From Escherichia coli (lineage in GTDB: Bacteria > Pseudomonadota > Gammaproteobacteria > Enterobacterales > Enterobacteriaceae), in the NCBI RefSeq assembly GCF_048403405.1, contig NZ_CP183129.1: a stretch of DNA of 64,000 nucleotides. One strand, 5' to 3'. The position numbers were made by a program, and so were the translations under genes. The notes under the pieces were generated by a model. The model was not told the origin of the DNA and made no database searches. It was given only the letters and a program-made list of their open reading frames with translations. Below are positions 6,100 to 6,496 of this stretch, one piece after another (the first letter of the stretch is position 1; every line of letters begins with the position of its first letter).

Positions 6100-6496
6100 G
6101 TGTTCCCCGCGCCAGCGGGGATAAACCGAATACGCAACAGTGTTTTTATTGACAACACCGGTGTTCCCCGCGCCAGCGGGGATAAACCGGCAACGCCAGT
6201 AAATCAGACCAACGGCGCTGGGTGTTCCCCGCGCCAGCGGGGATAAACCGCGTTGTTTTGCCGGGTCGGGTGAATATATCGTAGTGTTCCCCGCGCCAGC
6301 GGGGATAAACCGGCCAGATTTCCAGTTCACTGGTCTTCGCGGCAAGTGTTCCCCGCGCCAGCGGGGATAAACCGAATGAGAGCTGACAGGTGTATGTCAT
6401 CAGTACGTGTTCCCCGCACCAGCGGGGATAAACCGTAATATTAGACTAATGTTTTTTTGTTGAGTTCGTGTTCCCCGCGCCAGCGGGGAACTCCCA
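6100..6496 (+). CRISPR. Type I-E CRISPR array, 7 repeats and 6 spacers
   Basis: 29-bp repeat GTGTTCCCCGCGCCAGCGGGGATAAACCG at 6100, 6161, 6222, 6284, 6346, 6407, 6468; spacers 32, 32, 33, 33, 32, 32 bp; repeat 6 has one substitution (CGCACC); repeat 7 is degenerate at its 3' end. Confidence 0.95.

Follow-up and report, generated by a model that had tools for sequence, protein, structure and literature searches.

The question raised by this locus is where the six spacers of a small CRISPR array came from, and what it means that one of them matches a gene of the E. coli core chromosome. The array lies near the beginning of a 64,000-nt stretch of Escherichia coli DNA, referred to here as the window. 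We consider it very probable that the array is the CRISPR1 memory of the clone of E. coli MS 69-1, that spacer 1 came from a phage and spacer 4 from the chromosomal gene ybgE, and that the match of spacer 4 to the host's own gene is inert.

Anatomy, setting and distribution of the array

Seven direct repeats of 29 nt each (GTGTTCCCCGCGCCAGCGGGGATAAACCG) are spaced 61–62 nt apart within window positions 6100–6496. They start at 6100, 6161, 6222, 6284, 6346, 6407 (one mismatch) and 6468 (five mismatches, a degenerate terminal repeat), and they carry the I-E consensus with its palindromic core. The six spacers between them measure 32, 32, 33, 33, 32 and 32 nt from spacer 1 to spacer 6, with GC contents of 37.5, 59.4, 48.5, 54.5, 43.8 and 21.9%, and each is unique in that none recurs elsewhere in the window. 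An earlier reading made without database searches (the sequence-only reading) had placed six spacers at 6129–6467, and our recount of repeats and spacers agreed with it exactly. The features of the locus are as follows.

239–1801, + strand, casA (open reading frame and NCBIfam I-E equivalog)
1798–2334, + strand, casB (open reading frame and NCBIfam I-E equivalog)
2349–3404, + strand, cas7e (open reading frame and NCBIfam I-E equivalog)
3415–4161, + strand, cas5e (open reading frame and NCBIfam I-E equivalog)
4143–4793, + strand, cas6e (open reading frame and NCBIfam I-E equivalog)
4790–5713, + strand, cas1e (open reading frame and NCBIfam I-E equivalog)
5710–6003, + strand, cas2e (TIGR01873, E = 3e-39)
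6004–6099, + strand, AT-rich CRISPR leader of 96 nt (26% GC), assigned from its composition and its place between cas2 and the first repeat
6100–6128, + strand, repeat 1, leader-proximal, consensus sequence
6129–6160, + strand, spacer 1 (newest), matching a P2-like temperate phage tail-fibre gene, flanking PAM ACG
6161–6189, + strand, repeat 2
6190–6221, + strand, spacer 2, 32 nt, without a target match
6222–6250, + strand, repeat 3
6251–6283, + strand, spacer 3, 33 nt, without a target match
6284–6312, + strand, repeat 4
6313–6345, + strand, spacer 4, 33 nt, ybgE antisense strand, self-matching, flank CAT
6346–6374, + strand, repeat 5
6375–6406, + strand, spacer 5, 32 nt, without a target match
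6407–6435, + strand, repeat 6, with a G-to-A variant at 6418
6436–6467, + strand, spacer 6 (oldest), 21.9% GC, the trailer spacer common to strain GF60
6468–6496, + strand, degenerate terminal repeat with five mismatches at its 3′ end
6516–7553, − strand, iap, the conserved gene bounding the trailer side of CRISPR1 (open reading frame; MS 69-1 and GF60 annotation)

Seven cas genes of the adjacent I-E operon lie in the window (cse1, cse2, cas7, cas5, cas6e, cas1, cas2), they score far above the cut-offs of the NCBIfam equivalogs, and the RefSeq annotation of the identical region of MS 69-1 agrees with our cas gene calls. Since all seven cas genes in the window match I-E equivalogs, the type I-E assignment made from the letters alone is borne out. 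The lengths of the Cas proteins (CasA of 520 aa and so on) identify the operon as the non-K-12 sequence variant. Beyond iap, downstream of the array, lie cysDNC. The leader is identical to that of strain GF60 at 93 of 96 nt (counted by eye from the aligned pair); a simple sigma-70 scan of the leader gave no promoter on the + strand, and an Rfam search of 5900–6600 returned no family. The array is thus an ordinary natural E. coli type I-E CRISPR1 (CRISPR2.1) at the cas2–leader–array–iap locus, and the same repeat is present at 79 loci of Enterobacterales genomes.

E. coli MS 69-1, which was isolated from a human colon, agrees with the window at each of the first 18,515 nt (100% identity). When 5,426 complete E. 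coli genomes were searched, the complete leader–array–trailer segment was found in six (TUM14771, 4621, MS 69-1, TUM1226, isolate 68 (OX030728) and GN02461) at 99.8–100% identity. "CRISPR" is annotated in each of these RefSeq genomes, and the array is of an already-known kind. The CRISPR1 array of GF60 ends in a spacer identical to spacer 6; its other seven spacers differ from those seen here, and the G-to-A repeat variant at 6418 also precedes the shared trailer spacer in GF60. This shared variant marks a common ancestry of the trailer end. The claim that spacer 1 should be the newest stands, because the leader is on the cas2 side, the iap end carries the degenerate repeat, and GF60 shares only spacer 6, which together set the leader-to-trailer polarity.

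The remaining interference gene, cas3, lies just outside the window, about 230–2,930 nt upstream of position 1 (L092:3070-5770 in MS 69-1). In GF60 an IS21-family element (istB) abuts the promoter side of cas3 (L098:1-258, upstream of cas3), and the same position in the MS 69-1 clone holds cysH and a hok gene. This Hok/Gef-family toxin gene is found directly upstream of cas3 in all six genomes of the clone (L092:2723-2875 in MS 69-1, between cysH and cas3, outside the window).

Sources of the spacers

Searching the 5,426 E. coli genomes with spacer 1 gave a 30/32 match (BLAST E = 3e-4) to a "phage tail protein" CDS in a prophage of E. coli N1420. This prophage encodes P2-family capsid, gpM, GPO scaffold, ogr/Delta, baseplate J and tape-measure proteins. 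We also ran a codon-aware degenerate pattern of spacer 1, with N at each third position, against IMG/VR, and it recovered three contigs, one of which (L007) matches the spacer at 31/32. In all four phage relatives, every mismatch to spacer 1 falls at the third (wobble) position of a codon. The protospacer corresponds to aa 63–74 of a 788-aa tail fibre, and between contigs the aligned N-terminal parts of the tail-fibre proteins show 79–84% identity. Judged from these alignments, spacer 1 derives from a P2-like temperate phage family, in which its source is the tail-fibre gene, and a search of the kind that the sequence-only reading had proposed for finding spacer targets has in this case led to a P2-like prophage tail-fibre gene, at 30/32.

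The flanking PAM of spacer 1 is ACG in four of four phage relatives. The C of this ACG falls at the wobble position of a Ser codon, TCG, and a synonymous change to TCT would yield AAG. For this reason the true donor of spacer 1, or the phage before PAM escape, may have had the canonical AAG, or the relatives in the databases may be PAM variants.

The same P2-like family is matched by spacers of other Enterobacterales arrays with the identical repeat, mostly with AAG. Members of the family (L004, L006, L007, L008) are targeted from at least three unrelated arrays, namely that of this clone, one in Citrobacter portucalensis (L085) and one on contig L084. At two of these P2-like protospacers the relatives differ at the PAM (AAG vs ACG or CAG), which is compatible with PAM drift or escape. 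On contig L084 (JAEWTL010000035.1), recorded as "MAG: Bacillota bacterium", there is a I-E array of Enterobacterales type that has the identical repeat and spacers matching the P2-like family; the contig is probably a binning contaminant.

Spacer 4 gave a match of a different kind. It matches ybgE in 5,424 of the 5,426 E. coli genomes, and its match to K-12 ybgE is perfect (33/33; E = 6e-8 for the 28 Gb of genomes searched). In an evenly spaced sample of the ranked matches, about 60% of the genomes are at 33/33, and the rest mostly carry one difference, at position 32 of the spacer. The ybgE genes of MS 69-1 and of strain 042 belong to this second group (32/33), with G at position 32 where the spacer has A, a synonymous change between the Phe codons TTC and TTT. 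The gene is the last of the cydABX-ybgE operon, in the core region cydABX-ybgE-ybgC-tolQ, and spacer 4 corresponds to its antisense strand. Spacer 4 is self-targeting in that its sequence also occurs outside the array in MS 69-1 (32/33), and the target is not a resident mobile element, as ybgE lies in a core region and is near-universal. One full-text literature search that combined ybgE with CRISPR and spacer brought up nothing but a genome paper on Azotobacter, unrelated to the subject. Plasmid records in PLSDB that bear ybgE are 0.28–4.9 Mb in size, for example NZ_OL790696.1 (4.8 Mb) and NZ_CP141089.1 (4.9 Mb), and they mostly look like mislabelled chromosomes or chromosome fragments. Because such records are chromosome-sized, plasmid matches to spacer 4 are not to be taken as evidence of plasmid origin.

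For spacers 2, 3, 5 and 6, the searches gave no source. When all six spacers were concatenated and searched in INPHARED phages and PLSDB plasmids, the only matches were by chance or across junctions, at E >= 0.6, those to ybgE excepted. A search of the five non-ybgE spacers against the 5,426 E. coli genomes (28 Gb, E <= 10) gave no protospacer for these four; what it did return was limited to the array itself in its six genomes, the trailer spacer of GF60 and the prophage matches of spacer 1. Exact 24–27-nt prefixes of spacers 2, 3, 5 and 6 found nothing in IMG/VR, nor did codon-wobble-degenerate patterns of spacers 2, 3 and 5 in IMG/VR or of spacers 2 and 3 in JGI metagenomes. Thus searches with all six spacers, as had been proposed, gave sources for spacers 1 and 4 and none for the other four. 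Spacers that find no match are the usual "dark matter" of E. coli spacers.

The sequence-only reading had called two of the spacers, 1 and 6, strongly AT-rich. We compared both with the host 32-mers of the window and with 1,402 spacers extracted from the 79 Enterobacterales loci with the identical repeat. A GC content as low as that of spacer 6 (21.9%) is found in 0.3% of the window 32-mers and 0.9% of the 1,402 spacers, and a GC content at or below that of spacer 1 (37.5%) in 7.8% and 14%, respectively. Spacer 6 is therefore rare in its composition and spacer 1 is ordinary. Of the six reading frames of spacer 6, just one is open, and this points to a possible source in non-coding, AT-rich DNA. 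AT-richness had also been read as a sign of phage or plasmid origin. Spacer 1 is indeed phage-derived but its GC content is unremarkable, and the AT-rich spacer 6 has no identifiable source; AT-richness is thus weak evidence, and base composition by itself says little about where a spacer came from. Nor does an origin from mobile elements extend to the set as a whole, since it holds for the phage-matching spacer 1 but not for spacer 4, whose match is to the core chromosomal ybgE.

PAM register and the self match

The upstream flank of the spacer 4 protospacer reads ...AATAAACCAT up to the boundary and GCCAG after it. The in-register PAM is therefore CAT, and one base further in the flank reads ATG. 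The sequence-only reading had expected AAG or AWG as PAM, and this expectation fails at both identified protospacers, which have ACG (spacer 1) and CAT (spacer 4, with ATG shifted by one base). In other arrays with the same repeat, seven of eight protospacers have AAG in at least one matched phage. The AAG motif therefore holds for the same-repeat array family and not for spacers 1 and 4, and the off-consensus PAMs are a property of individual acquisitions that gives no ground for excluding the array from type I-E. In naive adaptation 63% of the acquired spacers have a PAM other than AAG (PMC4027179), and ACG is reported to be highly enriched among naive acquisitions and to act as a priming PAM as well (PMC4678831). 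Given the former figure, two non-consensus PAMs and a chromosome-derived spacer would be what naive (unprimed) adaptation produces.

Both upstream flanks resemble the 3′ end of the repeat, with ATAAACC-AT at ybgE and TAAAC-G at the phage protospacer compared with ATAAACCG (window 6121–6128 vs L001:1491-1500 for ybgE and L007 at about 7543-7550, minus strand). Such a repeat-like flank was found at none of eight further protospacers of same-repeat arrays (1,402 spacers, 79 loci). We rejected the resemblance as a mechanistic signal on this count and because seven of those eight have plain AAG in at least one matched phage and the register differs between the two flanks (+1 nt vs −1 nt); it is probably a coincidence. 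We likewise rejected "flipped" insertion of spacers 1 and 4, as no CTT follows either protospacer.

At the ybgE self target the PAM found, CAT, is not expected to be interference-competent. A C at −3 or −2 places a PAM in the inactive group, which disrupts E. coli I-E activity (PMC4678831). Because the CAT flank has C at −3, Cascade with spacer 4 crRNA should not license cleavage of ybgE, if PAM data from the K-12 Cas variant carry over to the other variant encoded here.

From the observed anatomy, matches, flanks and polarity, we infer the following history. Cas1–Cas2 would have inserted the spacers one at a time at the leader end. For the newest, spacer 1, the donor would have been a P2-like temperate phage, through its tail-fibre gene. 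Spacer 4 would stem from the chromosomal ybgE of E. coli, whether of the cell itself or of a conspecific, probably by a one-base "slipped" capture beside an ATG PAM that gave a 33-nt spacer with CAT as its effective PAM. Such a slip next to ATG fits the unusual 33-nt length of spacer 4 and its 62-nt unit. Type I-E of E. coli is normally silenced by H-NS, and presumably so here. Since the C at −3 would block licensing by Cascade and H-NS would silence the system, the self match is probably inert and tolerated. Spacers 2, 3, 5 and 6 would come from unsampled elements.

Several points weigh against this account. The consensus AAG or ATG PAM is in register at neither protospacer, as compared with seven of eight AAG in the other same-repeat arrays. 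Capture of the cell's own ybgE is not proven, as spacer 4 carries the ybgE allele of other lineages (A at position 32) and not the G of its own clade. The PAM rules come from the K-12 Cas variant while the operon here is the other E. coli variant, and four of the six spacers go unexplained.

The allele of spacer 4 leads to the question of whose ybgE was sampled. Its A at position 32 is that of about 60% of E. coli, including K-12, and the G of MS 69-1 and its relative 042 is found in many lineages, including O157:H7, so that the difference is a polymorphism of long standing rather than an escape mutation that arose recently. Spacer 4 could then record incoming DNA of another E. coli lineage, sampled by Cas1–Cas2 after conjugation (Hfr or F-prime), generalized transduction or delivery from lysed neighbours, or the whole CRISPR locus could have been imported by recombination from a strain with the TTT allele. 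We regard such a foreign source as possible though doubtful, because a single mutation in the spacer or the genome, or recombination at ybgE after acquisition, gives the same pattern. The ybgE matches on very large PLSDB "plasmid" records would also speak for it, but most of these have the look of mislabelled chromosomes and we identified no mobile element that carries ybgE. The fuller version, in which spacer 4 is a record of conspecific gene flow (foreign TTT vs the clade's TTC) tolerated through its slipped PAM and possibly through the 5′ lesion of cas3 described below, strikes us as rather improbable. A spacer that matches the host could, on the other hand, have a function, its crRNA guiding Cascade to cyd-ybgE in a CRISPRi-like manner or barring recombination between E. 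coli strains. The crRNA would be antisense to ybgE mRNA and complementary to the coding strand, the seed and 32 of 33 positions match the host gene, and all Cascade genes are intact. Yet CAT, the PAM in register, belongs to the non-functional group because of its C at −3 (PMC4678831). RNA targeting is not known for type I-E, and the spacer, confined to 6 of 5,426 genomes, shows no sign of conservation. Normal silencing of I-E by H-NS also argues against a function, which we think very unlikely.

The self match could also be tolerated because Cas3 has been lost, with interference dead and non-consensus and self spacers accumulating by naive adaptation. The cas3 gene is annotated "frameshifted" in all six array-bearing genomes, with identical sequence in each, and the same 5′ sequence is found in 47 complete genomes, including that of the EAEC strain 042. 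Both identified PAMs are non-consensus, as expected in a system without priming or selection. However, compared with the intact gene of GF60, cas3 here has one extra T, at about nt 21–24 of the annotated open reading frame and upstream of a plausible start. An in-frame GTG lies 23 nt downstream, preceded by AAGGA (Shine-Dalgarno), and the 885-aa protein predicted from it has all Cas3 domains and aligns from position 6 of the K-12-type Cas3 profile. The pseudogene call may thus be an artefact of start-codon annotation, and we judge loss of Cas3 to be unlikely. Short queries searched in very large databases can, finally, give chance similarities, and the ybgE and phage matches might be of this sort. 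The probability of this is negligible: the E value of the 33/33 ybgE match takes the 28 Gb searched into account, the 31/32 match of spacer 1 includes 10 of 11 unconstrained wobble positions with the same codons in four homologous genes, and an independent BLAST match of spacer 1 has E = 3e-4. Chance origin is refuted by these match statistics.

We therefore return to a CRISPR1 memory with one phage-derived spacer and one probably inert chromosomal spacer. Only one detail is mildly unusual: the ybgE allele in spacer 4 is that of other lineages, not of the host clade, and capture of conspecific DNA, import of the locus or later mutation could each account for it. If the foreign-allele reading were true, spacer 4 would be a small sign that the chromosomal DNA of conspecifics is sampled by CRISPR adaptation in nature, and under the gene-flow version natural I-E arrays would take samples of the chromosomal DNA that E. 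coli strains exchange and might in principle police it. The significance is otherwise small, with sources assigned to two of six spacers of one E. coli clone; spacer 4 adds one concrete example to a known class of tolerated self-matching E. coli spacers.

Comparison with known systems

The array is like E. coli CRISPR1 at iap-cas2 in its locus (cas2–leader–array–iap–cysDNC), its 29-nt repeat, its 32–33-nt spacers, its AT-rich leader and its degenerate last repeat. There is no structural difference, and what sets it apart is that spacers 1–5 are confined to one clone, in 6 of 5,426 genomes.

The targets of E. coli spacers are mostly prophages (Dion et al. 2024, PMC10910852), and a prophage-derived newest spacer fits this bias. 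Spacer 1 is like the anti-prophage spacers of E. coli I-E arrays in having a temperate P2-like prophage as its target; it differs in that its flank is ACG, not AAG, in all four database relatives.

Among 1,014 complete E. coli genomes, 99 (about 10%) had self-targeting events, mostly outside prophages (Dion et al. 2024, PMC10910852), and self-targeting spacers have been reviewed by Wimmer and Beisel 2020 (PMC6990116). Like the natural self-targeting spacers of E. coli, spacer 4 has its sequence elsewhere in the same chromosome, outside any prophage, and here the target is the core gene ybgE. Unlike the known cases, the host copy of the target differs by one PAM-distal base while the match to other lineages is perfect.

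Slippage of 1–2 nt is known from E. coli adaptation (Shmakov et al. 2014, PMC4027179), and spacer 4 likewise starts one base early relative to an ATG PAM. Whereas that slippage was described for adaptation in the work of Shmakov and colleagues, spacer 4 belongs to a natural array, where it is 33 nt long and its repeat unit 62 nt; 3.9% of the 1,402 natural spacers with the same repeat are also 33 nt long.
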